Positions 5,141-19,540 of a stretch of 53,816 bases of DNA are shown in pieces. This stretch comes from a virus (taxonomy: Duplodnaviria; Caudoviricetes), in the IMG/VR virus record IMGVR_UViG_3300032050_000179, positions 1 through 53,816 of that record. One strand, given 5' to 3'. Positions within the stretch are counted from its first letter, which is position 1; every line of letters begins with the position of its first letter. The notes under the pieces are model-generated. The model searched no databases, was not told where the DNA came from, and saw nothing but the letters and a program-made list of their open reading frames with translations. Both the position numbers and the translations under genes were made by a program.

Positions 5141-5902
5141 TTAGAACTGTATTGGAAGAGTAGATGATGTTAATCGGTGACAAATTCTACCTACACATTT
5201 AACATCTTCTTCACAATAGTTCTTTATCTTTTCGTAGTCTTTTTCGACCCAAAAAGTTTTTCCAACGTATTCTCCGCTCATAGTAGCTTTTGGCGAAGGA
5301 ACGCCAAGCGAGCAAGATAAAACGTCAAGTGAAACGTAACCGTCCCAGTTTCCTAGGCTCCAAAGTTCTCCTGTGTCTAAGTGAGTAACTTCCCATGGTT
5401 TTTTACCCCATGTTTGAAGCTGTACTGGAACATTAACATTATTCATCACCATTCTTTTCACTAACCAAGGAATATCAAATTTCTTGATGTTGTGACCACA
5501 TAGTCTCATGCTTTTTCCAGCACGATCAATGTTATAAAGTAACTCAGAAATAGGTTTTAATACTTGTTCTACTTCTGAAGTTTCAGATCTTTCAGTATCA
5601 TAGAAACTTTTCATTTTTCCTAACCAAACCATTTTTCCACTATTGACAGAGGAAGTAGTTAAGTAGCAAAAAGAACCGCAAACTATTCTACCAAATTCTG
5701 CGTACAAAGGAGACTGGTCTAAATAAGCTTGTCTATAGTCTTCCCATTTTTCAGGTTCTTTAGATGCAGATTTAATACACTTTGTTCTCCAAAGTTCAGC
5801 TTTTCTAGGATTGTTCTCGTAAAGCTCATCGTAAGATCCGAATTCAGATGAAGTTTCTAAATCGAAAAATAACAATGTTGAAAGTTCTGTTTCTTGTATC
5901 AT
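5141..5902 (-). CDS. DEDD-family 3'-5' exonuclease (PolB-exo2-like)
   Basis: FFDLET (ExoI), GHNIKKFDIP (ExoII), YCEEDV (ExoIII). Confidence 0.85.
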   Translation of the reverse strand: MIQETELSTLLFFDLETSSEFGSYDELYENNPRKAELWRTKCIKSASKEPEKWEDYRQAYLDQSPLYAEFGRIVCGSFCYLTTSSVNSGKMVWLGKMKSFYDTERSETSEVEQVLKPISELLYNIDRAGKSMRLCGHNIKKFDIPWLVKRMVMNNVNVPVQLQTWGKKPWEVTHLDTGELWSLGNWDGYVSLDVLSCSLGVPSPKATMSGEYVGKTFWVEKDYEKIKNYCEEDVKCVGRICHRLTSSTLPIQF

Positions 5903-6047: not shown

Positions 6048-7169
6048 TTAAGGTAGCGGAGGGAACGAAACTGCAAACTGCATATCTTCTTGGTAACGAA
6101 GTTTTCGAATCTTAAGCAAAAGCTGATTGACAAAGTCTCTATCTACATGTTCTGGTAACGTAGAAATTTCTAACAGATCATCGATTTTTTGAATCTTAGT
6201 TACAGCTTCTTCTATCAGAGAATTGTAATCATATTCTCCTCTTCGTATAGCTAATAGCTGTTCTCTATTCTCTCGCTTAACATTAATACCTTTCCCTTCG
6301 AAAATTTCCAGAGCTGTATCTAAAAGCCTGTGACAGTGAGCCAAATTCTTTCCATCGTATCCTTTATTATGAACCATGTTATCGGTAAATCTTTCTTGGT
6401 TCCTATTTTCTACCCAATCCCAATACTCTTTATAATCTTTGCAATAAGTAGAGTATCCATCCTTATTAAAATACATTACGAAAGCATGTTCTATTCCTTT
6501 AGGAATTTCTGACAATGAAATGTCATTAGATAGAATTTCATCTTGGACAATTCCCTTGACATGTTTTCCTGTTACAGATTTACCTTGTGTCAAGTAAGCT
6601 CCATAAGTATATCTCATGTGTGGTATACTCACAAGGCTCACATGTTCTTGACTCCATCCTGGATGCACTTTTATTAAATACTCTTTAACAGGAAGTGATC
6701 CTTGTTTGTACGAGACATGACAGAAATCTAAAACTCCTTTGCGCTCTTTTTCCATAGGTCTAACTATTTTCTTATTTAAACCTCTAGCCTTTTTGATCTG
6801 ATCGATAGCATATCCTCCAAAAGAATTTCTACATTTCTTGGTTATAAACTTAGTCTTCTCTCGCAGTACCATATCAAAAATAGGATCTTTGAAAAGAATA
6901 CATTCTTCGGGTAAGTTCAAAACTTCTAACATCGTTGGATTATTAGATTCTAAAAGTTGTAAAAATCTTCTAAGCTCGTAGAAGACAGTATCATTTTTGC
7001 TATCTGAAACTTGCTCAACATAGTTGAAATCTAAAATATTATCAAAAGGAATCATGAAAACACCTTTTATATCCACATCAGATGTTGGAGTAGAAATTCC
7101 ATAGGCTTGACTTCCGACTATGCCTTCGAATATAATTAAATTTTGATCTCTAAGTTCTTGTATTGTCAT
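6048..7169 (-). CDS. Pol-beta superfamily nucleotidyltransferase (YcgL/RlaP-like)
   Basis: GSQAYGISTPTSDVDIKGVF motif, NPTMLE, YDGKNLAHCHRLL; ATG at 7169 (track extends to TTG 7178). Confidence 0.85.
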   Translation of the reverse strand: MTIQELRDQNLIIFEGIVGSQAYGISTPTSDVDIKGVFMIPFDNILDFNYVEQVSDSKNDTVFYELRRFLQLLESNNPTMLEVLNLPEECILFKDPIFDMVLREKTKFITKKCRNSFGGYAIDQIKKARGLNKKIVRPMEKERKGVLDFCHVSYKQGSLPVKEYLIKVHPGWSQEHVSLVSIPHMRYTYGAYLTQGKSVTGKHVKGIVQDEILSNDISLSEIPKGIEHAFVMYFNKDGYSTYCKDYKEYWDWVENRNQERFTDNMVHNKGYDGKNLAHCHRLLDTALEIFEGKGINVKRENREQLLAIRRGEYDYNSLIEEAVTKIQKIDDLLEISTLPEHVDRDFVNQLLLKIRKLRYQEDMQFAVSFPPLP

Positions 7170-7201
7170 CTTTTGCAATTTTTAAAGTTTCTTTAAATTC
7201 A

Positions 7202-8614: not shown

Positions 8615-9397
8615 TTAATAAGGATTATCGATAACCCATTGATTATTAGAAAAGTAATTTTTTATAATGTTCATTGAAAGTACCGTATTTTTATCCACGG
8701 TTATCCCGTCAGAGTTTTCAATGTTTCTATAGTCGATAAAAAATCTTTTTTCTAAAAACGGTGCAACTCTTCTTTCAATCTTTTTCATTTTAAAGAAATA
8801 TGAAAAAATATGATCATCATGCATGGCTATTAAATTCTGGCTCTTGTGCAAATCTATCATCTCCTGTATATAAGAGATGAACTCATCTTTTTCTATCAAA
8901 TTTACAGGGTACAGTACACCTCTATAGCCTCCTACAATATCTACTACAAAATAATCAAAAGCCGAAGAATCGATTCTCTCTTGATGTATATAACTTTCTT
9001 CTCTGTGACCCATTATAGAGTAAACAGCATTAGGATTTTTTTCCCATGCGCTTACTAAAGATTCAATTGCTCTATTAGTCAAGAGGGCGTCATCATCGAA
9101 AGTAAAAATTAAGTCACCATTTTTAGTATCTACATGATTAATTGGTGACAGTAATTTTTTACAAGAGCCTATGTCTACGTTATCTTTGACAATTTGAGAC
9201 GGTATAGGATAAGTTTCTATGAATTTTTCTATTCTAGCCAAGTCTTCTTTTGGAAAGTATTTTTCATTTCTAGGATAGAAATCAGAAACTGAAATTAATA
9301 AGGAGTTTGGAAGAACTGTCTGTTCTAGTAAAGAACCTAAAACTTTAAATAAAGATTCCGCTCTTCCGGGTATTGTACATACTGAAGCAATTATCAT
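8615..9397 (-). CDS. GT-A fold glycosyltransferase
   Basis: IIASVCTIPGR N-terminus, FTFDDD (DxD), GGYRGVLYP, HDDH; likely start ATG 9397. Confidence 0.75.
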   Translation of the reverse strand: MIIASVCTIPGRAESLFKVLGSLLEQTVLPNSLLISVSDFYPRNEKYFPKEDLARIEKFIETYPIPSQIVKDNVDIGSCKKLLSPINHVDTKNGDLIFTFDDDALLTNRAIESLVSAWEKNPNAVYSIMGHREESYIHQERIDSSAFDYFVVDIVGGYRGVLYPVNLIEKDEFISYIQEMIDLHKSQNLIAMHDDHIFSYFFKMKKIERRVAPFLEKRFFIDYRNIENSDGITVDKNTVLSMNIIKNYFSNNQWVIDNPY

Positions 9398-9502
9398 AGC
9401 TAAATTTAAAAAATAGAACATTCAGGAGCTTCACCTGCCTTCTAGTATACATGGAACCTCTGTTAAAACAGTCAGAACCGAGCTTTCTTACTTTGTTCTA
9501 TT

Positions 9503-9587
9503 TGGTACTCTCGAAGGGACTCGAACCCTTACGCCTTTCGGCACTGGTTCCTAAGACCAGAGTGTCTACCTATTCCACCACGAGAGC
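9503..9587 (-). tRNA. trnL: tRNA-Leu(UAG)
   Basis: Cloverleaf, anticodon arm CTGGT-CTTAGGA-ACCAG, long variable arm, encoded CCA. Confidence 0.95.
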
Positions 9588-9592
9588 AAATT

Positions 9593-9787
9593 TTATTCTT
9601 CGAAAATTATTCCTTCATTCTCGACTAAAATATCATCAGCTATGTCTGAAAGAACTTCCGGTGCTTCTATTAAAGCATCATCGTTTTGCATTATCATTTC
9701 ACCTACGCCATATTTTTCAAAGTATTTAGTAAGTTTTTCTATAGCTTGTTCTTTTTTCTTCTCAGACCAAATTATTTTACAATGCAT
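9593..9787 (-). CDS. Small acidic hypothetical protein within tRNA operon
   Basis: 64-aa ORF between tRNA genes. Confidence 0.6.
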   Translation of the reverse strand: MHCKIIWSEKKKEQAIEKLTKYFEKYGVGEMIMQNDDALIEAPEVLSDIADDILVENEGIIFEE

Positions 9788-9803
9788 ATCATTTTTTTAG
9801 TAG

Positions 9804-9920
9804 TAGTCAGGGCAGGGCTCGAACCTGCAATCCTACCTGTTAGCTCGGATTTATCATCACTCGGTACGTTACTAACACATATACCAATCACTGAACGTCT
9901 ACCAATTCCGCCACCTGACT
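9804..9920 (-). ncRNA. tRNA-like RNA with anticodon region replaced by ~60-nt insert
   Basis: Perfect acceptor AGTCAGG/CCTGACT, D arm TGGCGGAATTGGTAGACG, T arm GCAGG-TTCGAGC-CCTGC; no canonical anticodon arm. Confidence 0.7.
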
Positions 9921-10062
9921 ATAAAAAACGGATAGAAAAAAGAACTCCTTAACAGTAAGACGTCTCTACTTCAAGAATCAGATTCAGTATTTAGATTACC
10001 GCGAATCTTCTAAATTACTTATTCTGCCATATACGATCTTTTTTCAGTTTAGTACTTTTATT

Positions 10063-10130
10063 TAAAGAATAAGGGACTCGAACCCTTGACCTCCGGACGC
10101 CGGTGCTCTCACCATCTGAGCTAAAACTTT
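10063..10130 (-). pseudogene. tRNA pseudogene / mimic with collapsed anticodon loop
   Basis: Canonical D and T arms; anticodon arm CCGG-CGT-CCGG; acceptor stem has two T-T mismatches. Confidence 0.65.
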
Positions 10131-10163
10131 GTTTTATTTTTTACTAAACTTTTTTCTCCGTCG

Positions 10164-10245
10164 TGACCTTGATGAGATTCGAACTCATACACCGTCTGGC
10201 ACAAGACCCTCAATCTTGCTTGTCTACCAATTTCAACACAAGGTC
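10164..10245 (-). tRNA. trnL: tRNA-Leu(GAG)
   Basis: CAAGA-TTGAGGG-TCTTG anticodon arm, long variable arm, acceptor GACCTTG/CAAGGTC. Confidence 0.9.
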
Positions 10246-10250
10246 AAATT

Positions 10251-10332
10251 GAGGTTGAGAACCTCTGTGTTGTTTAAAACTATTGTTCATTTTAACCTTA
10301 TTAGCAAATTCCTTTCTCAAGGGAACAACACA
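10251..10332 (-). ncRNA. Small structured RNA with kissing-loop potential
   Basis: TGTGTTGTT/AACAACACA stem; loop TTGAGAA complementary to loop TTCTCAA of GAGG/CCTC hairpin. Confidence 0.5.
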
Positions 10333-10338
10333 TAACTT

Positions 10339-10413
10339 GTCAGAGAATAATAAAAAGAGTGTTTGTAAGCAAATTCCAATATCAGCGATGTAACTCTTTT
10401 TTCCGCTTCTGAC
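10339..10413 (-). ncRNA. Y RNA-like element 1 (short, no tRNA domain)
   Basis: GTCAGAAGCGG..GAGTTACATC ... ACTC..ATTCTCTGAC; same bulged terminal stem as five other copies. Confidence 0.65.
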
Positions 10414-10419
10414 TTTCAG

Positions 10420-10493
10420 TGATCCCGGATGGATTCAAACCATCGACCTTAGCATTAGAAGTGCCACGCTCTATTCAACTGAGCTACGGAACC
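10420..10493 (-). tRNA. trnR: tRNA-Arg(UCU)
   Basis: Anticodon loop CTTCTAA; acceptor GGTTCCG/CGGGATC. Confidence 0.9.
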
Positions 10494-10545
10494 ATATCAA
10501 AGAACTTATATTTTAAAATAACAAACTAGTGTCTTTCTGAGAAAA

Positions 10546-10677
10546 TTATTTTTTCTTTTTTACTAATTTTTTAATGAATTTGTAAAACTTGTCATTTTTA
10601 TGTTCAGGTATTCTTAAGTATTTTCTCGATCCTTCAAATTGCCCTGTCATTACTGTTTTGATTTTGATTTCTTTCAT
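10546..10677 (-). CDS. Possible small basic protein (43 aa, MKEIKIKTVMTGQFEGSRKY...)
   Basis: Open frame with ATG between tRNA-Thr and tRNA-Arg; below ORF-track cutoff. Confidence 0.35.
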   Translation of the reverse strand: MKEIKIKTVMTGQFEGSRKYLRIPEHKNDKFYKFIKKLVKKKK

Positions 10678-10731
10678 ATATAAATTTAATACTATTATTA
10701 GAATTTTGAAATTGTATGACAAAATTCTTTG

Positions 10732-10804
10732 AGCCTTTGACAGGAGTCGAACCTGCGACCACGAAATTACAAAGTTCGCGCTCTACCAACTGAGCTACAA
10801 AGGC
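10732..10804 (-). tRNA. trnT: tRNA-Thr(UGU)
   Basis: Anticodon loop TTTGTAA; acceptor GCCTTTG/CAAAGGC. Confidence 0.9.
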
Positions 10805-10809
10805 AGTTC

Positions 10810-10947
10810 ATCTAGAGAATTTTTAGTACGAAGATTTTTCCGCGTCTACCAATTCCGCCATCTGGATAACCAGAGAGGGATTCGAACCCTCACGCTTTTA
10901 AAGCAGCCATTTTTCAGATGATGTAATCGTACTTACCGCTTCTAGAT
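10810..10947 (-). ncRNA. Y RNA-like element 2 (YrlA-like, permuted tRNA-Leu-like domain)
   Basis: TCTAGAAGCGG..CGATTACATC stem enclosing variable arm, T arm GAGGG-TTCGAAT-CCCTC, closed acceptor TCTGG-TTAT-CCAGA, then D arm. Confidence 0.75.
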
Positions 10948-10951
10948 TTAG

Positions 10952-11022
10952 TTACCGGGGAAGGATTCGAACCTCCGTTAAGTGGACCAAAACCACTTGT
11001 CCTGCCTCTAGACGACCCGGTA
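10952..11022 (-). tRNA. trnQ: tRNA-Gln(UUG)
   Basis: AGTGG-TTTTGGT-CCACT; acceptor TACCGGG/CCCGGTA. Confidence 0.92.
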
Positions 11023-11026
11023 TTAT

Positions 11027-11115
11027 TGGCGGAAAATAGTGGGATCGAACCACATACCAGTTAAGGTACGCATTACTTAGCAGGTAAGCCTTATCGCCGT
11101 TTAAGTTTACTTTCC
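11027..11115 (-). tRNA. trnS: tRNA-Ser(GCU)
   Basis: Anticodon loop CTGCTAA, long variable arm, G73-CCA. Confidence 0.88.
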
Positions 11116-11124
11116 ATTTCAAAA

Positions 11125-11234
11125 ATCAGTCAATGATAGAATCTTTCCTAGTTTCTTCGGTATAGGTACCATCATGGGCTCCGTTAACTGATTCTTTCTT
11201 TTATAACCCATACGGAACAAGCAGGGTAACTGAT
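11125..11234 (-). ncRNA. Small pseudoknot-containing structured RNA
   Basis: Terminal ATCAGTTA/TGACTGAT; interleaved TCCGT/ACGGA and ATGGG/CCCAT; ATGATGG/CTATCAT hairpin. Confidence 0.45.
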
Positions 11235-11240
11235 GTAAAG

Positions 11241-11314
11241 TCTGATAGGGAGGATTCGAACCTCCGAGTTCTCCACATCCCAAATGTGGCGGGGTACCAC
11301 TCCCCAACTACCAG
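11241..11314 (-). tRNA. trnP: tRNA-Pro(UGG)
   Basis: CCACA-TTTGGGA-TGTGG; acceptor CTGGTAG/CTATCAG. Confidence 0.9.
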
Positions 11315-11373
11315 AAATTTATTTCTATGCTACTCACTAAAAAGAGTCTATGAAATAATAACAGTCTTCTGTG

Positions 11374-11447
11374 GGTGACTAGCGGAAGTTGAATCCGCGA
11401 CCTCCAAGACCACAACTTGGCGCTCTAACCAACTGAGCTATAGTCAC
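11374..11447 (-). tRNA. trnH: tRNA-His(GUG)
   Basis: CCAAG-TTGTGGT-CTTGG; acceptor GTGACTA/TAGTCAC, C73. Confidence 0.92.
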
Positions 11448-11449
11448 AG

Positions 11450-11522
11450 AGTACCTGAAGGGATTCGAACCCCTGTTATAACGCTTTGCAGGCGTTTGCC
11501 TAAACCACTCGACCACAGGCAC
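11450..11522 (-). tRNA. trnC: tRNA-Cys(GCA)
   Basis: AACGC-CTGCAAA-GCGTT; U73. Confidence 0.92.
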
Positions 11523-11548
11523 TTATTAGACATACAAAACTGTCTCGG

Positions 11549-11635
11549 CGGAGAATGTAGGATTCGAACCTACGGAACCCTTTCAGGTTCGCTGCTTTTC
11601 AAGAGCAGTGCCATAAACCACTCGGCCAATTCTCC
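11549..11635 (-). tRNA. trnS: tRNA-Ser(UGA)
   Basis: CTGCT-CTTGAAA-AGCAG; long variable arm; G73. Confidence 0.95.
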
Positions 11636-11653
11636 ATTTATATTTCCATTATG

Positions 11654-11662
11654 TCAAAGAAC
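11654..11662 (-). promoter_or_regulatory. boxA-like antitermination element GTTCTTTGA
   Basis: Directly after attenuator A; same 9-mer at 10497-10505, 14285-14293, 16342-16350, variant at 14979-14987. Confidence 0.55.
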
Positions 11663-11668
11663 TTACAT

Positions 11669-11699
11669 AAAAAAACCGGATCTTTTTGAGATCCGGTTT
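11669..11699 (-). terminator. Attenuator terminator of tRNA operon A
   Basis: AAACCGGATCT-CAAAA-AGATCCGGTTT followed by T-run; 5' arm also complementary to AGATCCGGTT at 11736-11745 inside the leader ORF. Confidence 0.85.
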
Positions 11700-11720
11700 C
11701 TTAGTAAAATATGTAATTCG

Positions 11721-11837
11721 TTATTCACATACTTTAACCGGATCTACAATACTATGTCTAGGACTTTGCGAAAGCGTAGTCGGACATGAGCTTTGAAGAA
11801 GCTGTGTGGATAAAGATATGTGAGTAATATTTTTCAT
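11721..11837 (-). CDS. Leader peptide A (38 aa, MKNITHISLSTQLLQSSCPTTLSQSPRHSIVDPVKVCE)
   Basis: ATG just after promoter; codons 5-29 are almost only S,T,L,Q,H,C,P,R, the amino acids of the downstream tRNAs; contains antiterminator. Confidence 0.8.
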   Translation of the reverse strand: MKNITHISLSTQLLQSSCPTTLSQSPRHSIVDPVKVCE

Positions 11838-11847
11838 TGTTTATTAT

Positions 11848-11894
11848 TGTATTGCAAATATAACAAAAGTTCTTAACATGGAAAAACTTTTTGA
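11848..11894 (-). promoter_or_regulatory. Bacteroidota-type promoter (TATATTTG, -7 box) of tRNA operon A
   Basis: TAnnTTTG at 11855-11862; 47-nt block identical at 44/47 positions to 16661-16707. Confidence 0.75.
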
Positions 11895-11909
11895 AACTTT
11901 TTTATTTTT

Positions 11910-12419
11910 TTAAATTCTTCCTGATATAGCTTCTCTAAAAATTTCAGGAATTGTGAAAGTAGAAAGCTCTACCAGATCACATTTACTATTTACTAAAATG
12001 AACATTTCAAAATCTTGTCTCTTTTCAGTGCTATATTCCATTTTGAATTCCTTAGCAATTTTTCTTGAGAAATTACCGTAAAATTTCTTTCTTCCAGAAG
12101 AAGAATCGTTAGCGCAGAAAATAAAAGCTTCAGGATTAATTTCTGTTATGAAATCTATAGCAGCTTTTTCCACTGTAGGTATCACACTAAAAGCTTTCTT
12201 TAAATCATTTTTTAATTCGTAAGATCCGTCTACGTCAAATTTGAAAAGAAAATGTTTCTGTTTACTAGAAAAATTAACAGCTTTTATAGAGTAATTTGCG
12301 TCATCTATTAAAAAATTTCCTCTCCAAGAAGATTTCGACTTTTGCCATTGAACTTCTATTGGTTCATTCAAACCTTCAAAAGTTTTTGATAGAAAAGATC
12401 TGAAATTATCAATGTTCAT
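11910..12419 (-). CDS. Hypothetical protein
   Basis: ORF; likely start MNIDNFRSF at 12419 right after upstream stop. Confidence 0.7.
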   Translation of the reverse strand: MNIDNFRSFLSKTFEGLNEPIEVQWQKSKSSWRGNFLIDDANYSIKAVNFSSKQKHFLFKFDVDGSYELKNDLKKAFSVIPTVEKAAIDFITEINPEAFIFCANDSSSGRKKFYGNFSRKIAKEFKMEYSTEKRQDFEMFILVNSKCDLVELSTFTIPEIFREAISGRI

Positions 12420-12420
12420 G

Positions 12421-12630
12421 TTATTTTTCTTCGTTGGCATTCTTAGGATCGCCTAAATCATCTGCTTTAACATGTTCAGTATGCTCTGCTTTACCGTTCC
12501 CTTTTTCTACTGCATCTTTAGGATCAGAAAGATCCTCAGCTTTTGTTGTAGATCCTGAATAATGTTTCTTGACTAATGCAGAAGTTCCCATTTTACAAAA
12601 CTCTTCAAACGTTGCTATATTCTTTTTCAT
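12421..12630 (-). CDS. Small protein with T4 internal-protein-like N-terminus (MKKNIATFEEF)
   Basis: 69 aa, internal KAEDLSDPK/KADDLGDPK repeat; GATATATA at 12647-12654. Confidence 0.65.
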   Translation of the reverse strand: MKKNIATFEEFCKMGTSALVKKHYSGSTTKAEDLSDPKDAVEKGNGKAEHTEHVKADDLGDPKNANEEK

Positions 12631-12657
12631 AGTTTCTAATTTTAGGTATATATCAAA

Positions 12658-13053
12658 TCAGAGACCGAATTTTCTTCCTATTAAGGTGTATTTATTCTCT
12701 TCAATGTACTTAAGAAAAGCATTATAAAAAATTCTAGCAACCCGAATATTTCCGCCATATTTTTTTACATAAAATGTCGGAGCTGGTCCAAATGATGAAT
12801 CTCCGCATGTCCCGTATATGGCATACTTAGTTACTAATCGATCTCCTACATGAACTTTATATGCATAAGCATTCAAAGACCATGCATATCCTTTTATGCC
12901 CATTTTAGTGCATTTATCTTTTCCGACGTATATATTTGCGCTACGATGCTCGAAAAGGGAAGATATATTAGAAAACGCAGCCTCTGTTACATAAAGACCT
13001 AATGTCTTTTTTCTATTATCAATATTGATTTCTTTAAGTTCAAATCCATTCAT
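12658..13053 (-). CDS. Hypothetical protein (C-terminal GRKFGL)
   Basis: 131-aa ORF, ATGA overlap with upstream gene. Confidence 0.7.
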   Translation of the reverse strand: MNGFELKEINIDNRKKTLGLYVTEAAFSNISSLFEHRSANIYVGKDKCTKMGIKGYAWSLNAYAYKVHVGDRLVTKYAIYGTCGDSSFGPAPTFYVKKYGGNIRVARIFYNAFLKYIEENKYTLIGRKFGL

Positions 13054-13340
13054 AATTTTTCTAGTAAAGAAAAAGGATATTCTCTATGCGGTTCTAATTT
13101 ATGTACTATTGATTTGATATATTCAGCGTCAAGATAGCCGAAATTTTCAAGTAGACTAACTACAGTATCTATGCAAAAATCGGCAATTCCTAGAGAATTG
13201 GATTTATAAATTTTTTGAATAGAACAAAAAATATCTCCGTTTTTTAAATCACCTTTTTCGCTAAATAAATCTATCCTTAAATATTCACTATGAAGATCCA
13301 TAGTACAAATTCTTACACTGAAAATTTCAATTCTATTCAT
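13050..13340 (-). CDS. Hypothetical protein
   Basis: 96-aa ORF. Confidence 0.65.
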   Translation of the reverse strand: MNRIEIFSVRICTMDLHSEYLRIDLFSEKGDLKNGDIFCSIQKIYKSNSLGIADFCIDTVVSLLENFGYLDAEYIKSIVHKLEPHREYPFSLLEKL

Positions 13341-13382
13341 TTAATATTCATTTAATTAATGAGGGAATATGAAAGGTGTAAC

Positions 13383-13406
13383 AAAAGGAGGTTTAAACCT
13401 CCTTTT
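13383..13406. terminator. Intrinsic terminator ending tRNA operon B (bidirectional shape)
   Basis: AAAAGGAGGTTT/AAACCTCCTTTT perfect inverted repeat with A/T tails. Confidence 0.75.
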
Positions 13407-13415
13407 AATTCTTGT

Positions 13416-13645
13416 TTATTCATTGGGAATTCTCTTACTTTTATGATCTCTTTTATACTTATCATAAGTACACATGTAACAATTACAAGGTCTTCCTGTA
13501 GTCCTCAACCAATTGGAGTTTTACCTTCAATAGCTGATTGTAAATTGTAAGTTTCATGTGTATTGTTGGAGAACCAATTTTTTGCACGTCTAATAAATTT
13601 GACGAATTTTTTGTGCCTTCTAAAGGCTCGGCGATAGTTTTTCAT
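13416..13645 (-). pseudogene. Frameshifted small basic Cys-motif protein
   Basis: MKNYRRAFRRHKKF...GKTPIG* in frame 0; -1 frame continues NSNWLRTTGRPCNCYMCTYDKYKRD...NE*. Confidence 0.55.
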
Positions 13646-13672
13646 TTGCTCATACTTATGTTATAGCTAGTA

Positions 13673-13705
13673 ACTGTTGCCCCAGATACTGTTGCCCCAG
13701 ATACT
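13673..13705. repeat. 15-nt tandem duplication ACTGTTGCCCCAGAT x2
   Basis: Direct observation; lies in loop of AGCTAGTA/TACTAGCT hairpin. Confidence 0.85.
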
Positions 13706-13759
13706 AGCTTAGTGTATGAGCTTTCTAATAAATATCATCGTCTTTAATTTTTTTAAGTG

Positions 13760-13833
13760 TGGTCCATCCTGGACTCGAACCAGGGACCTTCGCATTATGA
13801 GTGCGCTGCTCTAACCGACTGAGCTAAAGGACC
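13760..13833 (-). tRNA. trnI: tRNA-Ile2(CAU) (lysidine-type; Met possible)
   Basis: Loop CTCATAA; GGTCCTTTAGCTCAGTCGGTTAGAGCA start resembles bacterial Ile2. Confidence 0.8.
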
Positions 13834-13836
13834 ATA

Positions 13837-13974
13837 AACTAGAGAATAATACTTCGAGCGTGTTTCTAGTGCTATCCGCTACACCACATCCGGATTACCC
13901 GAATGCCAGGATTCGAACCTGGGCCTTTTTTGTTACAGAAAAAATTGAAGTAACTCGTTGTTCCGCTTCTAGTT
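13837..13974 (-). ncRNA. Y RNA-like element 3 (YrlA-like)
   Basis: AACTAGAAGCGG..GAGTTACTTC; T arm CCAGG-TTCGAAT-CCTGG; closed acceptor CATTCGG-GTAAT-CCGGATG; D arm; ..ATTCTCTAGTT. Confidence 0.78.
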
Positions 13975-13980
13975 AATGTC

Positions 13981-14119
13981 TTGCAGAGAATGATTTCAAG
14001 AGTCTTTTTAGGACAAATGCTCTACCACCTGAGCTATACGCTTTCCATCAAGGTATACGTAGTAGGATTCGAACCTACGACCCATTGTTTTGAAGTAACT
14101 CTTCGAACCGCTTCTGCAA
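13981..14119 (-). ncRNA. Y RNA-like element 4 (YrlA-like)
   Basis: TTGCAGAAGCGG..GAGTTACTTC; T arm GTAGG-TTCGAAT-CCTAC; closed acceptor; D arm TAGCTCAGGTGGTAGAGCA; ..ATTCTCTGCAA. Confidence 0.78.
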
Positions 14120-14127
14120 TAAAATTT

Positions 14128-14275
14128 TTTCAGAGAATATTTGCTAGAGTGTAGTACGTGCTCTACCACTGAGCTAACTCGGTATTAAATGTGGAAGAAA
14201 TGTACCGAGTGAGGGAATCGAACCCCCGACCACGAGCTTAAGAGGCTGAAGTAACTCTTGCGACCGCTTCTGAAA
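14128..14275 (-). ncRNA. Y RNA-like element 5 (YrlA-like)
   Basis: TTTCAGAAGCGG..GAGTTACTTC; T arm; closed acceptor ACTCGGTA/TACCGAGT; D arm TAGCTCAGTGGTAGAGCA; ..ATTCTCTGAAA. Confidence 0.78.
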
Positions 14276-14298
14276 TATATTTTTTCAAAGAACAATTT

Positions 14299-14388
14299 GT
14301 CAGGCAATATGGAATCGAACCCTAATCCTGCGTCCCCTTTCCAGTTTAATGTACTCCGTTCTGCTGTGCACCATTACACCATGCCTAA
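14299..14388 (-). pseudogene. tRNA-like RNA without recognisable anticodon arm
   Basis: Acceptor TTAGGCA/TGCCTGA, D arm TGGTGTAATGGTGCAC, T loop GGTTCGATTCC; middle region non-canonical. Confidence 0.55.
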
Positions 14389-14437
14389 TCGAATGTTTCG
14401 AACCATTCGGGCGTAAGTTAATTAGACTTACGCTTTG

Positions 14438-14616
14438 CGATCCTAGACGGAATCGAACCGTCAGTGTAAATTACATGAAATATGCTTTGACTATGTACAT
14501 TTAAACTCCGATCCTAGTATTAAGGAGTGTCAAACCATATTTCCATCATCTACCCAATTTCACAATACATAATGACAGTTTCTAATGTTTTCGCCCATTG
14601 CTGTTGCTATAGGATC
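14438..14616 (-). ncRNA. 179-nt RNA with tRNA-like acceptor/T arm and long internal hairpin
   Basis: GATCCTA/TAGGATC acceptor; GACGG-TTCGATT-CCGTC T arm; internal GAAATATG/CATATTTC, TTTGAC/GTCAAA, ACTCC/GGAGT helices. Confidence 0.65.
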
Positions 14617-14622
14617 AATTTC

Positions 14623-14703
14623 AAACTGAGAATAATAACAAGAGCGTTGTTTCGGTTACAAAGTAAAAGTTTGTTGAAGTAACTCTCGTTTCCGCTTCAG
14701 TTT
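14623..14703 (-). ncRNA. Y RNA-like element 6 (short, no tRNA domain)
   Basis: AAACTGAAGCGG..GAGTTACTTC ... GCTC..ATTCTCAGTTT. Confidence 0.65.
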
Positions 14704-14752
14704 TAAAAAGTTCGTTTCTGTTAACCAACGTTATGATTACTAGAAACTAGCG

Positions 14753-14824
14753 TAGCGGGGGCCGGACTCGAACCGACGACCTCCAGGTTATGAGCCTGGC
14801 GAGCTACCACTGCTCTACCCCGCA
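14753..14824 (-). tRNA. trnM: tRNA-fMet(CAU), initiator-type
   Basis: CCAGG-CTCATAA-CCTGG; T1:T72 mismatch; TGCGGGGTAGAGCAG start. Confidence 0.88.
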
Positions 14825-14830
14825 ATATAG

Positions 14831-14913
<83 letters not shown>

Positions 14914-15043
14914 ATTTAACCAATACTCAATTTCTTTTTCAAATATTGTATTGGTTAGATAGTTAATTTTAAATTATTTCAAAGAATTATATTTCAAAAT
15001 AACAAAAGTTATTATGTTTGAGAAACATTTTTTACATTTTTTG

Positions 15044-15120
15044 TGGAGCGGAAGAAGGGATTCGAACCCTCGACCCCCTGCTTGGAAGGCAGGTGCTCTA
15101 ACCAGCTGAGCTACTTCCGC
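15044..15120 (-). tRNA. trnG: tRNA-Gly(UCC)
   Basis: CCTGC-CTTCCAA-GCAGG; U73-CCA. Confidence 0.95.
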
Positions 15121-15125
15121 TTGTG

Positions 15126-15199
15126 TGATCCCGGTGGGGCTCGAACCCACGACTCCCGCATTAAAAGTGCGATGCTCTAGCCAGCTGAGCTACGAGATC
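15126..15199 (-). tRNA. trnK: tRNA-Lys(UUU)
   Basis: Loop CTTTTAA; acceptor GATCTCG/CGGGATC. Confidence 0.92.
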
Positions 15200-15273
15200 A
15201 AGATGTAATGTTGTTTAGGTGCCATTACATTCAATCTCGAATGTAATGGCTAAAGCTTAGAGTTTTTCATTGA

Positions 15274-15468
15274 TCAGTTTTTGTATTTTGTTTTTCTGTT
15301 GTGTTTCCACGTTTTGTATTCTCTCCATTTATGATTAGGAAGATCTCCATGATTCCATGTCCATCCTTCTTCATAATATGGAGGGTAATACCATTTCAAG
15401 ATTATCTTACGATACTCTTTGTTGTTATGAGCTTTGTTAAATTTAGCTCTGTTGTAATTTTTACTCAT
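15274..15468 (-). CDS. Small basic Trp/Tyr-rich protein
   Basis: 64 aa, ends REYKTWKHNRKTKYKN; preceded by uORF MKKEFDNL* and hairpin. Confidence 0.7.
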   Translation of the reverse strand: MSKNYNRAKFNKAHNNKEYRKIILKWYYPPYYEEGWTWNHGDLPNHKWREYKTWKHNRKTKYKN

Positions 15469-15531
15469 TGTTGTAGGTTTTAGTTAACCTACAAGTTATC
15501 AAATTCTTTTTTCATATTAATAGTTTTGTAG

Positions 15532-15603
15532 TTACGAAGAGGAATTTCGAAATCCTGGCCTTCCGGATATGAGCCGGATGCTCTGCCTCTGAGCTACTTC
15601 GTA
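15532..15603 (-). tRNA. trnM: tRNA-Met(CAU), elongator-type
   Basis: TCCGG-CTCATAT-CCGGA; acceptor TACGAAG/CTTCGTA. Confidence 0.85.
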
Positions 15604-15609
15604 ATTAGA

Positions 15610-15810
15610 TTAAGCTATCCACCTGATAAGCAATTTTCCTTCCATACTGTTCAAGAAATCTGCATCTCCCATATCTTCAACAGGAATTTGAAAATGAACT
15701 CTCGTTTCTTCAAGATCTGCATAATAATACGCTACTCCTTTTCGTATAAATTGAATACGTGCTTCCGGGTTTTGCTTGTAGAGAGCTTTTTTGATTTCGT
15801 TCTTTTCCAT
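15610..15810 (-). CDS. Hypothetical protein within tRNA operon
   Basis: 66-aa ORF with ATG and A-rich leader. Confidence 0.7.
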   Translation of the reverse strand: MEKNEIKKALYKQNPEARIQFIRKGVAYYYADLEETRVHFQIPVEDMGDADFLNSMEGKLLIRWIA

Positions 15811-15829
15811 TATACGTTTATTTAGTTAG

Positions 15830-15903
15830 TTGAAACAGTAAGACTCGAACTTACGACCTCCTCGGTATCAGCGAGGTGCTCTAACCAACTGAGCTATATT
15901 TCA
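15830..15903 (-). tRNA. trnI: tRNA-Ile(GAU)
   Basis: CCTCG-CTGATAC-CGAGG. Confidence 0.92.
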
Positions 15904-15908
15904 ATTTG

Positions 15909-15983
15909 CGACGGTGGTAGGACTCGAACCTACTATCCTCGACTTAACAGGCCGTAGCTATATACCACTTAAGCTTCACCGTC
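15909..15983 (-). tRNA. trnN: tRNA-Asn(GUU)
   Basis: Loop CTGTTAA; acceptor GACGGTG/CACCGTC; G73. Confidence 0.9.
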
Positions 15984-15991
15984 ATTTTTTG

Positions 15992-16064
15992 CACAGGAGG
16001 CAGGAATCGAACCTGCAACCACCGGTTTTGGAGACCGGTACTCTACCAATTGAGCTACTCCTGT
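15992..16064 (-). tRNA. trnW: tRNA-Trp(CCA)
   Basis: CCGGT-CTCCAAA-ACCGG. Confidence 0.93.
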
Positions 16065-16070
16065 GTATAG

Positions 16071-16144
16071 TGGATCCTAGGGGACTCGAACCCCTGACCC
16101 CCTGCGTGCAAGGCAGGTGCTCTAGCCATCTGAGCTAAGGACCC
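16071..16144 (-). tRNA. trnA: tRNA-Ala(UGC)
   Basis: CCTGC-CTTGCAC-GCAGG; G3:U70 identity pair. Confidence 0.95.
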
Positions 16145-16151
16145 AATTTAG

Positions 16152-16224
16152 CGGTCCTGAAGGGATTCGAACCCTCGATCTCCTCCGTGACAGGGAGGCG
16201 TCCACTCCACTGGACTGCAGGACC
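16152..16224 (-). tRNA. trnD: tRNA-Asp(GUC)
   Basis: CCTCC-CTGTCAC-GGAGG; G73. Confidence 0.93.
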
Positions 16225-16251
16225 TTGATGACAGTACAAAAACTGTCTCGG

Positions 16252-16325
16252 TCACCCGTATGGGATTCGAACCCATGATCTTCTCCGTGAAAGGGAGACG
16301 ACTTAAACCTCTTGTCCAACGGGCG
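16252..16325 (-). tRNA. trnE: tRNA-Glu(UUC)
   Basis: TCTCC-CTTTCAC-GGAGA. Confidence 0.93.
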
Positions 16326-16362
16326 TTGGAATTATAATATGTCAAAGAACGTTTTCTTTTTG

Positions 16363-16435
16363 TGGTACCGACTGGAATCGAACCAGTGACACAAGGATTT
16401 TCAGTCCTTTGCTCTACCGACTGAGCTACGGTACC
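16363..16435 (-). tRNA. trnF: tRNA-Phe(GAA)
   Basis: AAGGA-CTGAAAA-TCCTT; acceptor GGTACCG/CGGTACC. Confidence 0.95.
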
Positions 16436-16445
16436 AAGTTAATGC

Positions 16446-16481
16446 AAAAGAAAAGCCTCGGTTTTTGACCGAGGCTTTTCT
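16446..16481 (-). terminator. Attenuator terminator of tRNA operon B
   Basis: AGAAAAGCCTCGGT-CAAAA-ACCGAGGCTTTTCTTTT; 5' arm also complementary to ACCGAGG at 16523-16529 in leader ORF. Confidence 0.85.
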
Positions 16482-16498
16482 GAATTTTAATTTCTATA

Positions 16499-16636
16499 TT
16501 ATAGTGTCGTTAAATCCATTTTCCTCGGTTGAAATTTCTCAATATCAAACTCAAACCCTTTCGCAGCATAGCCATAATTGTCGGCCATCTTATTGGCTTT
16601 CCAATTATTATTTTCTATGTTGTTAATGTTGTACAT
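16499..16636 (-). CDS. Leader peptide B (45 aa, MYNINNIENNNWKANKMADNYGYAAKGFEFDIEKFQPRKMDLTTL)
   Basis: ATG after promoter; first 35 codons use only M,Y,N,I,E,W,K,A,D,G,F, the amino acids of the downstream tRNAs; contains antiterminator. Confidence 0.82.
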   Translation of the reverse strand: MYNINNIENNNWKANKMADNYGYAAKGFEFDIEKFQPRKMDLTTL

Positions 16637-16660
16637 TTGAAAGTGTATTTGTTTTATTTT

Positions 16661-16707
16661 TGTATTGCAAATATAACAATAGTTTTTAACGTGGAAAAAC
16701 TTTTTGA
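16661..16707 (-). promoter_or_regulatory. Bacteroidota-type promoter (TATATTTG) of tRNA operon B
   Basis: TAnnTTTG at 16668-16675; near-identical to 11848-11894. Confidence 0.75.
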
Positions 16708-16728
16708 TTATTTTCTAAAAATTTTTTT

Positions 16729-17085
16729 CTAGTAACCAATTTCTTCTACTAGATCAAGGAATTTGACCCATTTTTCACCATCTGGTCTTTCTTCAAGAAC
16801 ATTAGCTACAAATCCAAATCCTTCTCGTTCTGTCCTTTCATAGTAATCACCAAGATCTGCATCTTCTTCACCAGAAGCAACATTTGGTTCAACAACACAA
16901 GCAGCTGCTTGGTTGTAAATCTTCATCAAGTTTTCATCGTTCAAGATAGCATCCGCATCTTTAGCCAATAATTGATCAAGACCTCTAGGATTTGATCTTT
17001 CAAAATCTGAACATGCACTCATTACCATGTCAGCCCAAGAATCTGATTCATTTAACCAGTTTTCAAAAAGTTTAATATGTTTCAT
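16729..17085 (-). CDS. Acidic protein with MKHIKLFENWLNES N-terminus (putative internal head protein)
   Basis: 118 aa; GATATATA at 17101-17108; N-terminus resembles T4 capsid-targeting sequence. Confidence 0.7.
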   Translation of the reverse strand: MKHIKLFENWLNESDSWADMVMSACSDFERSNPRGLDQLLAKDADAILNDENLMKIYNQAAACVVEPNVASGEEDADLGDYYERTEREGFGFVANVLEERPDGEKWVKFLDLVEEIGY

Positions 17086-17099
17086 ATTTTGGATTTTTC

Positions 17100-18290
17100 T
17101 TATATATCTTTAAGAATAAAATTTTTTCTCAAAACTGGATTATCAAACATTTCCATAGTTTCCGTTGATAAATTCTTTTGAAGAACTTCTCTCTGCACAT
17201 CTAAGTGATCTTGATAGTTTTCTTTTATCCATTCAAATTTTTCTTTGAGTTCTTTTTCGTCATTAAACACATAATCAGAAAGTTCTCTATAGATATTCTC
17301 AGAATCTATTTTACCATAAATGAGAAAAACTGTTCTAGCTATACTTGCGTCATACAGAGTCTTGTTGAAATAGTAGCTGCTATCTTCACCCTTTCCAACA
17401 AAAAGATAAGCTATGTAACTGTTCAATTCTTTGTACATCTCATCTTTGACAATAGGTTCTTCTATCATTTCAATAGAAGAAATTTTTCTTAAACTTCCGT
17501 TGATAGTTCTCTCCGCTGTTCTTAAAAAGAGAGGAACTTCTGAAGATTTCATTATCTCTTTAATCTTTCTAACTTTACCTGGGTTTAAGTTACCTACATG
17601 ATAGAGTAAATTCTTTTTCTCTTCTATTCCTAAATTAGAATTGTTCTCGTAACATTCCTCGTACCTAAAAAGAATATCGTCGGAAATGTAACAAGATCTA
17701 TTCTGAACATTTTCTTTTTCTAAGAAAGGCATAGTCTTAGTCAAAGTTATCCATGACCAATCGCAAACTTCTCTATTTCCATTGCATAAGAAATAAACAT
17801 TGTCGTAATTAGTCATTTTAACATTATCTAGAGAATGAAGATGTTTGGGATTTCTTTCTACGAATTTTATACCGCTTTCCGTGGTGTTTATTCTATCTTG
17901 GATCATCTTTTTATAATCTCTCATTTCATGCTTAAAGTCGCATATCCTGAAATAAACTTTCAAGTCTTGTTCATTGGTGATATGAGAAAGAATTTTGTAA
18001 AGATCCACAGCTTTAGGGCTAATAACTCCTCCGAAGAAATCTTGGTACCAATCCCAAGTGAATAACAAATCTACTTTAGTGAATTTTTCTACATCAGCAA
18101 AACCGTTTACATGCACTCTAGTGAATTCAAAATCGAATTCATCTAACATGTGTGAGTATTTGCCTTTATAATCAAAAATGTATACCTTTTCAATATTAGG
18201 ATGATTAAATAGTGTGTTATAACATCTCAGCTCGTTGAAGAGCATTCCGTTCATTGTAAAATCAAAATGTAGAAAAAAACCTACTTTCAT
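17100..18290 (-). CDS. T4 beta-glucosyltransferase-like GT-B enzyme (putative DNA glycosyltransferase)
   Basis: DFFGG...KVYFRICD and YIAYLFVG...TLYDASIARTVFLIYGKID resemble recalled T4 BGT motifs; similar size. Confidence 0.6.
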   Translation of the reverse strand: MKVGFFLHFDFTMNGMLFNELRCYNTLFNHPNIEKVYIFDYKGKYSHMLDEFDFEFTRVHVNGFADVEKFTKVDLLFTWDWYQDFFGGVISPKAVDLYKILSHITNEQDLKVYFRICDFKHEMRDYKKMIQDRINTTESGIKFVERNPKHLHSLDNVKMTNYDNVYFLCNGNREVCDWSWITLTKTMPFLEKENVQNRSCYISDDILFRYEECYENNSNLGIEEKKNLLYHVGNLNPGKVRKIKEIMKSSEVPLFLRTAERTINGSLRKISSIEMIEEPIVKDEMYKELNSYIAYLFVGKGEDSSYYFNKTLYDASIARTVFLIYGKIDSENIYRELSDYVFNDEKELKEKFEWIKENYQDHLDVQREVLQKNLSTETMEMFDNPVLRKNFILKDI

Positions 18291-18823: not shown

Positions 18824-19540
18824 TTATTTATCTATACCGTTTTCCTCTTTGTATTTTTCATAATTGTCTGTCAATTCTATAAGTATAGGGTTTCTAACTA
18901 TGTCTGCTCTAGTGAATTCAAAAGTAGAACAGCTATTAACACCTTTGGAGATTTTTTCTCCGAATACTAGCAGATCTTTTCTCCTGTTTTTGATGTCCCA
19001 TTGAGTAACGTCTCCACATATAATGATTCTAGAATTTCTACCCATCCTTGTCACTACTAGCATCAACTGCCTTAAATCTGCATTTTGTGCTTCATCTAGT
19101 ATTAAGATAGTATCGTCAAAAGTTTCACTTCTCATGAAAGCTAGAGGTTCCATAGTTATAAGATCTGCAGCCATGATAGCTTTTAACTTATCGTTATCTA
19201 TGATTTTTTTCATGTTAGAAACATATCCTTTCATGTAAGGAGCTATCTTTTCTTCTATAGTCCCGGGTAAGAAACCTAGATTTTCTCCAGATTCCACAGC
19301 AGGTCTAGCTAAAATGATTTTTTTATGTGCACCTTCTCTCAACAAGTCTAACGCTGCGTAACAAGCAACAAATGTTTTTGCTGTACCAGCAGGTCCTGTG
19401 CAGACTGTTAAGAAATTATCTTTAATAGTCTTGAAAAAAGTCAACTGCGAATGTGAAAATTTTATCGTGTTGAAATCTGCTTTGTGGAGTTGTAACACAT
19501 TAGCTTGTTCTTCCTCCTTTTTTGGTTTTCTTTTTTGCAT
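18824..19540 (-). CDS. phoH: PhoH-family ATPase
   Basis: GPAGTAKT Walker A, RPAVE, LGFLPG, LDEAQN, TRMG, GDVTQ, DIVRNP. Confidence 0.95.
   Translation of the reverse strand: MQKRKPKKEEEQANVLQLHKADFNTIKFSHSQLTFFKTIKDNFLTVCTGPAGTAKTFVACYAALDLLREGAHKKIILARPAVESGENLGFLPGTIEEKIAPYMKGYVSNMKKIIDNDKLKAIMAADLITMEPLAFMRSETFDDTILILDEAQNADLRQLMLVVTRMGRNSRIIICGDVTQWDIKNRRKDLLVFGEKISKGVNSCSTFEFTRADIVRNPILIELTDNYEKYKEENGIDK

Follow-up and report, generated by a model that had tools for sequence, protein, structure and literature searches.

Two tRNA operons of a virus, here called A and B, each begin with a short open reading frame (ORF) whose codons correspond to the tRNAs encoded behind it. They lie in IMG/VR record IMGVR_UViG_3300032050_000179. 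The window, meaning the whole stretch analysed (positions 1 to 53,816), is a 53.8-kb piece of a virus record with an estimated completeness of 19%. A 462-kb uncultured phage has a baseplate wedge protein with 41.7% identity to the window's, and identity to those of Prevotella Lak phages is about 32%; because of these values we assign the window to the huge phages of Bacteroidota-type hosts. Both operons, with their leaders, promoters and terminators, are on the minus strand and read from high to low coordinates. The layout is common to both: a promoter block, a short ORF, an intrinsic terminator and then the first tRNA. The features are as follows.

11847 to 11894, minus strand: promoter block of operon A, with a -7 box at 11855-11862 (identified by similarity to block B)
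11721 to 11837, minus strand: leader ORF A, 38 codons plus stop, with a sensor tract at codons 5-29 (11751-11825) (ORF list)
11669 to 11699, minus strand: predicted intrinsic terminator A, a stem of 10 to 12 pairs, a loop of 5 to 7 bases and a T run (read from the sequence)
9503 to 11635, minus strand: tRNA operon A, with Ser-tga, Cys, His, Pro, a Ser-gct candidate, Gln, Thr, Arg-tct, Leu-gag and Leu-tag, and with tRNA-like elements interspersed (ARAGORN at default and relaxed settings, and Rfam)
16660 to 16707, minus strand: promoter block of operon B, with a Bacteroidota-type -7 box at about 16668-16675 (identified by similarity to block A)
16499 to 16636, minus strand: leader ORF B, 45 codons plus stop, with a sensor tract at codons 1-35 (16532-16636) (ORF list)
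16441 to 16481, minus strand: predicted intrinsic terminator B, a 14-pair stem, a 5-base loop and a T-rich tail (terminator scan)
13759 to 16435, minus strand: tRNA operon B, with Phe, Glu, Asp, Ala, Trp, Asn, Ile-gat, CAT, Lys, Gly, Tyr, CAT, tRNA-like modules and CAT (ARAGORN and Rfam)

The two operons serve 8 (A) and 11 (B) amino acids with zero overlap, and Val is missing from both; three tRNAs of operon B have a CAT anticodon. An earlier note on this DNA had described 23 tRNAs in two non-overlapping sets. The sets stand as described, and ARAGORN at default settings reports 22 tRNAs. The earlier note's count of two Ile and two Met tRNAs takes one of the CAT tRNAs for Ile. The 23rd, a second Ser, is most likely the Ser-gct candidate at 11027-11115, a weak call reported by relaxed ARAGORN only and absent from Rfam results at E<=1.

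Both leader ORFs start with ATG and end in a stop codon, and they lie 11 and about 25 nucleotides (nt) downstream of the predicted start region. In leader A, 24 of the 25 codons from 5 to 29 specify amino acids of set A, covering all eight, and the uninterrupted run is 22 codons long. In leader B, all 35 codons of the tract belong to set B, covering all 11 of its amino acids. Our recount of both tracts gives the figures claimed in the earlier note, which was also right that Val is missing from both tRNA sets and from both tracts: leader A has Val codons only at 31, 34 and 36, past its tract, and leader B has none. The longest in-set runs in the other ORFs, among 539 six-frame ORFs of at least 20 amino acids in the window, are 11 for set A and 17 for set B, versus 22 and 35 in the leaders. 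Across 32 long ORFs, the background share of residues is 0.35 for set A and 0.59 for set B. Of the 75,582 ways to divide 19 amino acids into groups of 8 and 11, the true split alone attains both runs. The match between leaders and tRNAs in the window is confirmed as lying far beyond chance. A coincidence of composition, sharpened by tract borders drawn post hoc, might nevertheless be proposed, since the borders were chosen in the earlier note and since five residues of set B (Asn, Lys, Ile, Phe and Tyr) are favoured by AT-rich genomes; against this, the rare residues Trp, Cys, His and Gln are matched too, and the proposal fails when other phages are brought in, as described below.

Units of the same design, lacking sequence homology, occur in six other phages: Cellulophaga phage phi4:1, the huge Bacteroidota-type phages LR756500.1 and LR745206.1, the jumbo contig L047 (reached via a relative of the window's RlaP gene), Vibrio phage D69 and Stenotrophomonas phage Moby. 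Its presence in D69 and Moby extends it beyond phages of Flavobacterium/Bacteroides-type hosts, the hosts named in the earlier note. Phage phi4:1 has three units, with its own promoter repeated upstream of two of the leaders. Its leader 1 contains Gln, Arg, Leu, His, Glu and Pro codons, and the tRNAs downstream are for exactly those six amino acids; the correspondence extends to codon choice, Arg being written CGT to go with Arg-acg in the array, and Leu both TTA and CTA to go with Leu-taa and Leu-tag. Leader 2 uses AGA, and its array has Arg-tct. Leader 3, found by the automatic screen described below, covers the last group completely, with its five amino acids Tyr, Ser, Asn, Trp and Phe. LR756500.1 has three units, His-Glu-Val-Trp-Leu, Asn-Asp-Arg-tct-CAT and Ala-Leu-taa-Pro-Tyr-Gln-Gly-Thr.

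Seven tRNA units occur in LR745206.1. A Gln-rich leader (L039:2039-2089) lies upstream of three tRNA-Gln genes and a GlnRS-type gene (L041:55-1653), and a Ser/Arg leader precedes Arg-acg and four Ser tRNAs (relaxed ARAGORN). In the leader of a 19-tRNA operon, 24 of the first 25 residues are in set and all 7 amino acids are covered. An eighth leader, rich in Asn and Arg (L038:3776-3826), is found upstream of a class II D/K/N synthetase gene and an ArgRS-like gene (L042:223-2299). In L047, a leader with Trp, Pro, Tyr and Cys is followed by Tyr, Pro, Pro, Trp and Cys tRNAs. The leader in D69 has an in-set run of 24 residues and covers 11 of 11 amino acids; that in Moby covers 14 of 15.

Leader starts are alike across the window, LR745206.1 and L047. 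They read Met-Lys-Thr/Asn-Ile/Leu-Asn, in A-rich codons throughout. Shine-Dalgarno sequences are described as absent in this phylum in a passage of PMC6847099, and the A-rich starts are consistent with start selection without them, which would account for the first four codons of leader A being out of set.

For a statistical comparison, of the kind proposed in the earlier note (leaders of other phage tRNA arrays against a shuffled null), 14 non-homologous units were assembled by coordinates, and the tRNA sets were permuted among the leaders with leader composition held fixed. The summed z of this hand set was 48.4; permuted values averaged 0.09+-6.1 and peaked at 33.2, so that none of 200,000 permutations was as high. 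Removal of the window's two units left a score of 40.8 against a permuted maximum of 32.6 (again 0 of 200,000). For 11 of the sets, the cognate leader ranked first among the 14. Some of the LR756500.1 and LR745206.1 leaders had been picked by eye, a weakness of this set, and for that reason a fixed-rule automatic screen was built. It takes tRNAs from ARAGORN at default settings; the best hairpin with a T run, of -8 kcal or stronger, at most 140 nt upstream of a tRNA; and the longest ATG ORF of 12-70 codons that ends 5-45 nt before the hairpin. The tRNA set is closed by the next unit or by a gap exceeding 2.5 kb.

The screen returned 17 units in 7 of the 8 phages screened. Their summed z was 54.8, against a permuted maximum of 31.4 (0 of 200,000), and 15 of the 17 leaders hold all amino acids of their tRNA set. 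Agreement is also found below the level of the amino acid. Leu codon boxes agree with the Leu anticodons present for 17 of 18 codons, and Arg boxes for 9 of 9, with CGN accompanying Arg-acg in two units and AGA accompanying Arg-tct in four. Because leader composition is fixed in these permutations and the result stands without the window's own units, coincidence is refuted statistically, and we give it practically no credence.

The promoter blocks of operons A and B are near-identical, as the earlier note had said, although its figure of 44/47 becomes 45 of 48 in the best ungapped block, or 51 of 55 when the block is extended. Both blocks contain an exact match to the -7 consensus of Bacteroidota housekeeping-sigma promoters, in use in Bacteroides and Flavobacterium papers. 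A 42-base promoter core has two occurrences in the 53.8-kb record, both at these blocks, and an 18-base part of it has 2 occurrences versus 0.23 expected. A sigma-70 consensus promoter scan of the window was uninformative, that consensus being unsuited to this type of host.

Homologous relatives were found for operon B in a viral contig, L012, and a metagenome contig, L023. The neighbouring 396-residue protein is 70-72% identical to that of the window, and both contigs retain the promoter, an open leader ORF, the terminator-arm copy discussed below, the terminator and a tRNA array that begins with tRNA-Phe. The leader peptides are 51% and 36% identical to leader B, and the replacements in the tract remain in set. 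Both arrays have a tRNA-Val and one Val codon per tract, and the window's operon B has neither. In L023 the terminator stem differs from those of window operon B and L012, and the copy within the ORF is changed to match. This compensatory change was read from the sequences and a duplex comparison; the region alignment of the three homologs placed the copies out of register. In L012 (2315-6889), ORFs of about 200-213 amino acids interrupt the tRNA array; two are near-duplicates and, judged by sequence, are probably homing endonucleases. Other matches to the promoter word in viral contigs, L012 aside, had no matching arrays and were set aside as chance matches. The metagenome search with the 396-residue protein gave 4 loci, one of them with a tRNA array. 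An INPHARED nucleotide search with the window found similarity at the tRNA level only. No tRNA hits were obtained in Flavobacterium phage MaF61 or Tenacibaculum phage PTm1, which are related through the baseplate gene.

These comparisons bear on whether the short ORFs might simply encode small functional peptides that have their own terminators, with the tRNAs expressed by unregulated read-through or from other promoters. Some leaders are indeed annotated as hypothetical proteins in public records, and one LR756500.1 unit has a promoter-like sequence between terminator and tRNA. The peptides are poorly conserved, however, at 51% and 36% when the neighbouring gene product is at 70-72%, their composition follows the tRNA set, and the leaders of unrelated phages show no homology to one another. 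In most units, moreover, the terminator lies 6-36 nt from the first tRNA, a spacing into which another promoter would therefore not fit. We regard this explanation as quite improbable.

The 5' arm of each terminator has its best partner in the upstream RNA within the last codons of the leader ORF, in both window leaders. These stretches, copies of the terminator 3' arm, are the candidate antiterminator strands (region 2), identified by duplex energy.

11735 to 11746, minus strand: antiterminator strand A, the terminator 3'-arm copy in codons 31-35 of leader A
16522 to 16530, minus strand: antiterminator strand B, the terminator 3'-arm copy in codons 36-39 of leader B

Each copy begins directly past the sensor tract, which bears out the earlier note's placement of the tract end just upstream of it. 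Predicted terminator A (hairpin -16.3 kcal) lies 20 nt past the leader stop codon and 36 nt upstream of tRNA-Ser; predicted terminator B (-22.4 kcal) lies 17 nt past the stop codon and 13 nt upstream of tRNA-Phe. The duplex of strand A with the terminator 5' arm has an energy of -16.2 kcal versus -6.5+-2.0 for shuffles, 1 of 300 being equal or better, and that of strand B has -12.7 kcal versus -7.8+-2.0 (9 of 300). Leader A as a whole folds with z = -7.85. The terminator is 17-33 nt past the leader stop in all 16 units examined. By hand sums over 14 units, in-set residues make up 186 of 291 upstream of the antiterminator copy versus 34 of 107 from the copy onward.

The effect of a ribosome was modelled by folding the transcript up to the terminator loop with the ribosome footprint kept single-stranded. 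In the model for leader A, the value for sequestration of the terminator 5' arm is 0.83, dropping to 0.26-0.53 with the A site at codons 29-38; for leader B the value is 0.56, dropping to 0.16-0.44 with the A site at codons 34-41. The sensor tracts, which end at codons 29 and 35, are thus predicted by the model to end about where a stalled ribosome would begin masking the antiterminator.

Sensing by RNA alone deserves mention here, because the leader codons are complementary to the anticodons encoded downstream: an untranslated leader RNA might bind tRNAs by codon-anticodon pairing, in the manner of a T-box. T-box riboswitches, which regulate aminoacylation genes, resemble the present units in sensing tRNA supply and in choosing between terminator and antiterminator, but they bind uncharged tRNA directly and without translation. 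Here the codons form a translatable frame, one continuous frame with start and stop in 17 of 17 automatic units, and the frame has stayed open in the diverged relatives L012 and L023. A search of Rfam over 9000-17500 found no T-box (specifier loop, T-box motif) or other riboswitch family at E<=1. Rfam leader families likewise gave no match at E<=1 over the same region, the leader regions yielding just sub-threshold chance hits on the terminator B hairpin. We therefore consider sensing by RNA alone very improbable.

In our judgment, both units of the window are probably ribosome-mediated (leader-peptide) transcription attenuators: a delay at any one sensor codon would lead to read-through from a host-type promoter into the phage tRNA genes. 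The central proposal of the earlier note, that each operon is gated by a leader-peptide attenuator matching its own tRNAs, is thereby supported at the level of sequence, and the position of the copy fits the logic by which stalling would give read-through. Sequence and statistics establish the layout, the match of leaders to tRNAs in the window, the recurrence of the design in unrelated phages and where the complementary stretch lies; leader translation, working terminators, the sense of the control and its trigger in nature are inferred. The proposed sequence of events is as follows. Polymerase would initiate at the promoter and a ribosome on the short ORF, which would act in three parts: an A-rich start, a sensor tract of codons for the amino acids of the downstream tRNAs, and a tail that carries the copy of the terminator 3' arm. 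A ribosome moving at full speed would cover the copy while the terminator is being made, so that the hairpin would form and transcription would end before the first tRNA. At a slowly decoded codon in the tract the ribosome would lag, the copy would pair with the terminator 5' arm as antiterminator, and polymerase would enter the tRNA genes. Fresh tRNAs would then restore decoding speed and close the loop. Possible triggers are depletion of host tRNA, uncharged tRNA and an anticodon nuclease. Because many amino acids have just one or two codons in the tract, the strongest response should follow when a tRNA species is severely depleted, as it would be by a decaying host pool or an attacking nuclease.

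Several observations weigh against this interpretation. Some amino acids have a single codon in the tracts (Trp, Cys and Arg for A; Trp for B), and weak sensitivity to mild starvation is therefore expected. Leader A holds one out-of-set Ile and one TTA codon, for which no Leu-taa tRNA was detected, and its three AGY Ser codons rely on the weak Ser-gct call. With default ARAGORN calls, Ser codon boxes agree in only 9 of 16 cases, and the fixed rule misses one unit with a GTG start. In the full-length fold of leader A, the copy pairs instead with codons 5-10. Compared with shuffles, the antiterminator duplex has no advantage in 3 of 16 units (103, 83 and 63 of 300 equal or better) and only a moderate one in four others (22-35 of 300). 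At equilibrium, 5 of the 6 units modelled still form the antiterminator with the ribosome absent, so that those units would be default-on, unlike the trp attenuator; three states appear in the fold model only for phi4:1 unit 1 among those six.

Numerous phage tRNAs lack such a unit altogether: 9 of 26 in LR756500.1, 17 of 17 in Rhizobium phage RHph_TM30 (which yielded no unit under the fixed rule), the first 10 in D69 and the first 4 in Moby. Searching by hand gave no convincing leader for the first tRNA group in either D69 or Moby. No relatives of operon A were found via the flanking 176-residue and 268-residue proteins, and operon A is therefore without comparative support of its own. Six metatranscriptome runs contain small shares of the region. 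In the four that were compared with the window the matches are all contigs, some of them near-identical over non-tRNA parts (16631-16783 and 13823-14275, for example); such contigs are uninformative on transcription, ends and levels.

Three of these points, namely antiterminator formation without the ribosome, the weak antiterminator signal in some units and the apparent insensitivity of single sensor codons, would suit leaders that act in cis by some means other than stall-dependent sensing of tRNA shortage. Such a leader might be a fixed timer or dampener of an early promoter, might couple translation to RNA processing or stability, or might exert control of opposite sign. A timer would have no need of the match between codons and tRNAs, yet that match is the strongest signal in the data. 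In-set codons also end where a stalled ribosome would start masking the copy, and in LR745206.1 leaders precede cognate synthetase genes, the classical arrangement for sensing supply. Control in cis without sensing is accordingly unlikely in our view, although it is the alternative to which we give the most weight, and attenuation by the translating ribosome is preferred.

The general mechanism of leader-peptide transcription attenuators of amino-acid biosynthetic operons (trp, his, thr, leu and pheA type) is described in PMC1183508. The present units share with them a short translatable ORF, cognate codons, a predicted terminator before the regulated genes and, in the window, a predicted antiterminator that competes for the terminator 5' arm, with the stop codon here 17-33 nt before the terminator. 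The biosynthetic attenuators control enzymes and use tandem codon runs, whereas here tRNAs are controlled and up to 11 amino acids are represented per leader, mostly by scattered single codons. Downstream of the window's leaders are tRNA genes and tRNA-like RNAs only, outside the classical scope of biosynthesis and synthetase genes. The present units further differ in being phage-borne, in the Bacteroidota-type promoter of the window and in matching no Rfam leader family; the 1:2 protector hairpin, by which biosynthetic attenuators terminate when their leader is untranslated, has no clear counterpart in the window folds.

Sensing of several amino acids by one leader has a precedent in the multivalent attenuation of ilv operons, where Leu, Val and Ile codons occur in a single leader. 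Those are three related amino acids of one pathway; the window's leaders have 8 and 11, set by the content of the tRNA array. Leader-peptide control of aminoacyl-tRNA synthetase genes is known from pheM-pheST. A His leader peptide is described upstream of hisS paralogs in bacilli (PMC2965389), and a passage of the same paper gives leader peptide systems as then known only in Proteobacteria and Actinobacteria, apart from its own Firmicutes case. Synthetase-gene leaders are alike in using decoding speed to attenuate a component of the translation apparatus, and leaders of LR745206.1 do precede GlnRS-type and class II D/K/N synthetase genes. The window's loop differs in that it would close directly on the sensed molecule, because the product is the tRNA itself. 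Leader peptides of the erm/cat type respond to drug-stalled ribosomes and act mostly on translation. They too report ribosome speed rather than a single metabolite, but here the composition of the leader is specific to each gene set; ermC is cited as a sensor of global translation slowdown in PMC2965389.

Other elements of the tRNA region are set out here as separate observations. Rfam has a 23rd tRNA hit of its own, and this element at 10063-10130 (minus strand, 49 bits) is tRNA-like but cannot decode, because its anticodon loop has 3 bases. At 9803-9920 (minus strand), also in operon A, an odd tRNA-like gene combines a type II D arm with some 30 additional bases; the only ARAGORN reading is Arg-tcg with a 22-base intron. 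Permuted tRNA-like modules, in which a T arm is followed by an acceptor and D arm, occur in both operons (13900-14300, 10830-10950 and 10330-10415, minus strand) and have a short repeated motif in common. Two of them have sub-threshold Rfam matches to the Y RNA-like family YrlA, scoring 32.2 and 31.5 bits where the gathering score is 69. An RlaP RNA-repair nucleotidyltransferase gene is near the tRNA region (6048-7178), and in Rhizobium phage RHph_TM30 a TROVE (Ro60-type) gene lies within the tRNA array. The tRNA-like modules and the RlaP gene may represent a phage Ro/Y-RNA-like module for RNA quality control or repair.

A 66-residue protein encoded between tRNA genes (15610-15810, minus strand) is 49% identical to a 76-residue protein between tRNA genes of the 634-kb phage LR745206.1 (L038:3427-3657). 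Flanking the tRNA region, at 18824-19540, 4220-5122 and 5141-5902, are a PhoH-like ATPase (1e-58), a weak match to Fpg/Nei-like glycosylases that is under the Pfam cut-off, and a PolB-type 3'-5' exonuclease domain. ARAGORN also reports a tRNA with anticodon cta, of the amber-reading type, near 110720 in the 462-kb phage LR756500.1, and, in LR745206.1 (L039:1765-1838), one whose anticodon is read as four bases and which lies between tRNAs for Asp and Pro. These two tRNAs may hint at recoding.

Phage tRNA genes are usually viewed as constitutive helpers with codon usage or as decoys against tRNA-cutting defences, and to our knowledge little is known of their regulation. The earlier note knew of no description of such control for phage tRNA arrays, and our search of the open-access literature in PubMed Central and bioRxiv likewise found no earlier description of leader peptides before tRNA genes. 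A broader view, which we favour only slightly over its negation, is that tRNA supply in large phages, across two or more bacterial phyla, is organised in closed-loop modules. A codon-sampling leader would stand before every tRNA sub-operon, and before certain synthetase genes of the phages, gauge how fast the codons read by its products are decoded and allow transcription on demand only; the arrays would be inducible replacement parts that make up for a decaying pool of host tRNA or for tRNA-cutting nucleases of the defence, and the leaders would be readable maps of operon structure. If this is true, phage tRNA expression would be modular and driven by demand, attenuation would extend from metabolism to the decoding machinery, and up to 11 amino acids would be integrated by one leader. 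A rule based on sequence alone would then divide tRNA arrays into transcription units. A cultured pair of host and phage exists in Cellulophaga baltica and phi4:1, with its three units. For synthetic biology the leaders would be ready-made multiplex sensors of decoding capacity, and for the phages themselves they would make the tRNA array a supply that is drawn on when decoding slows.

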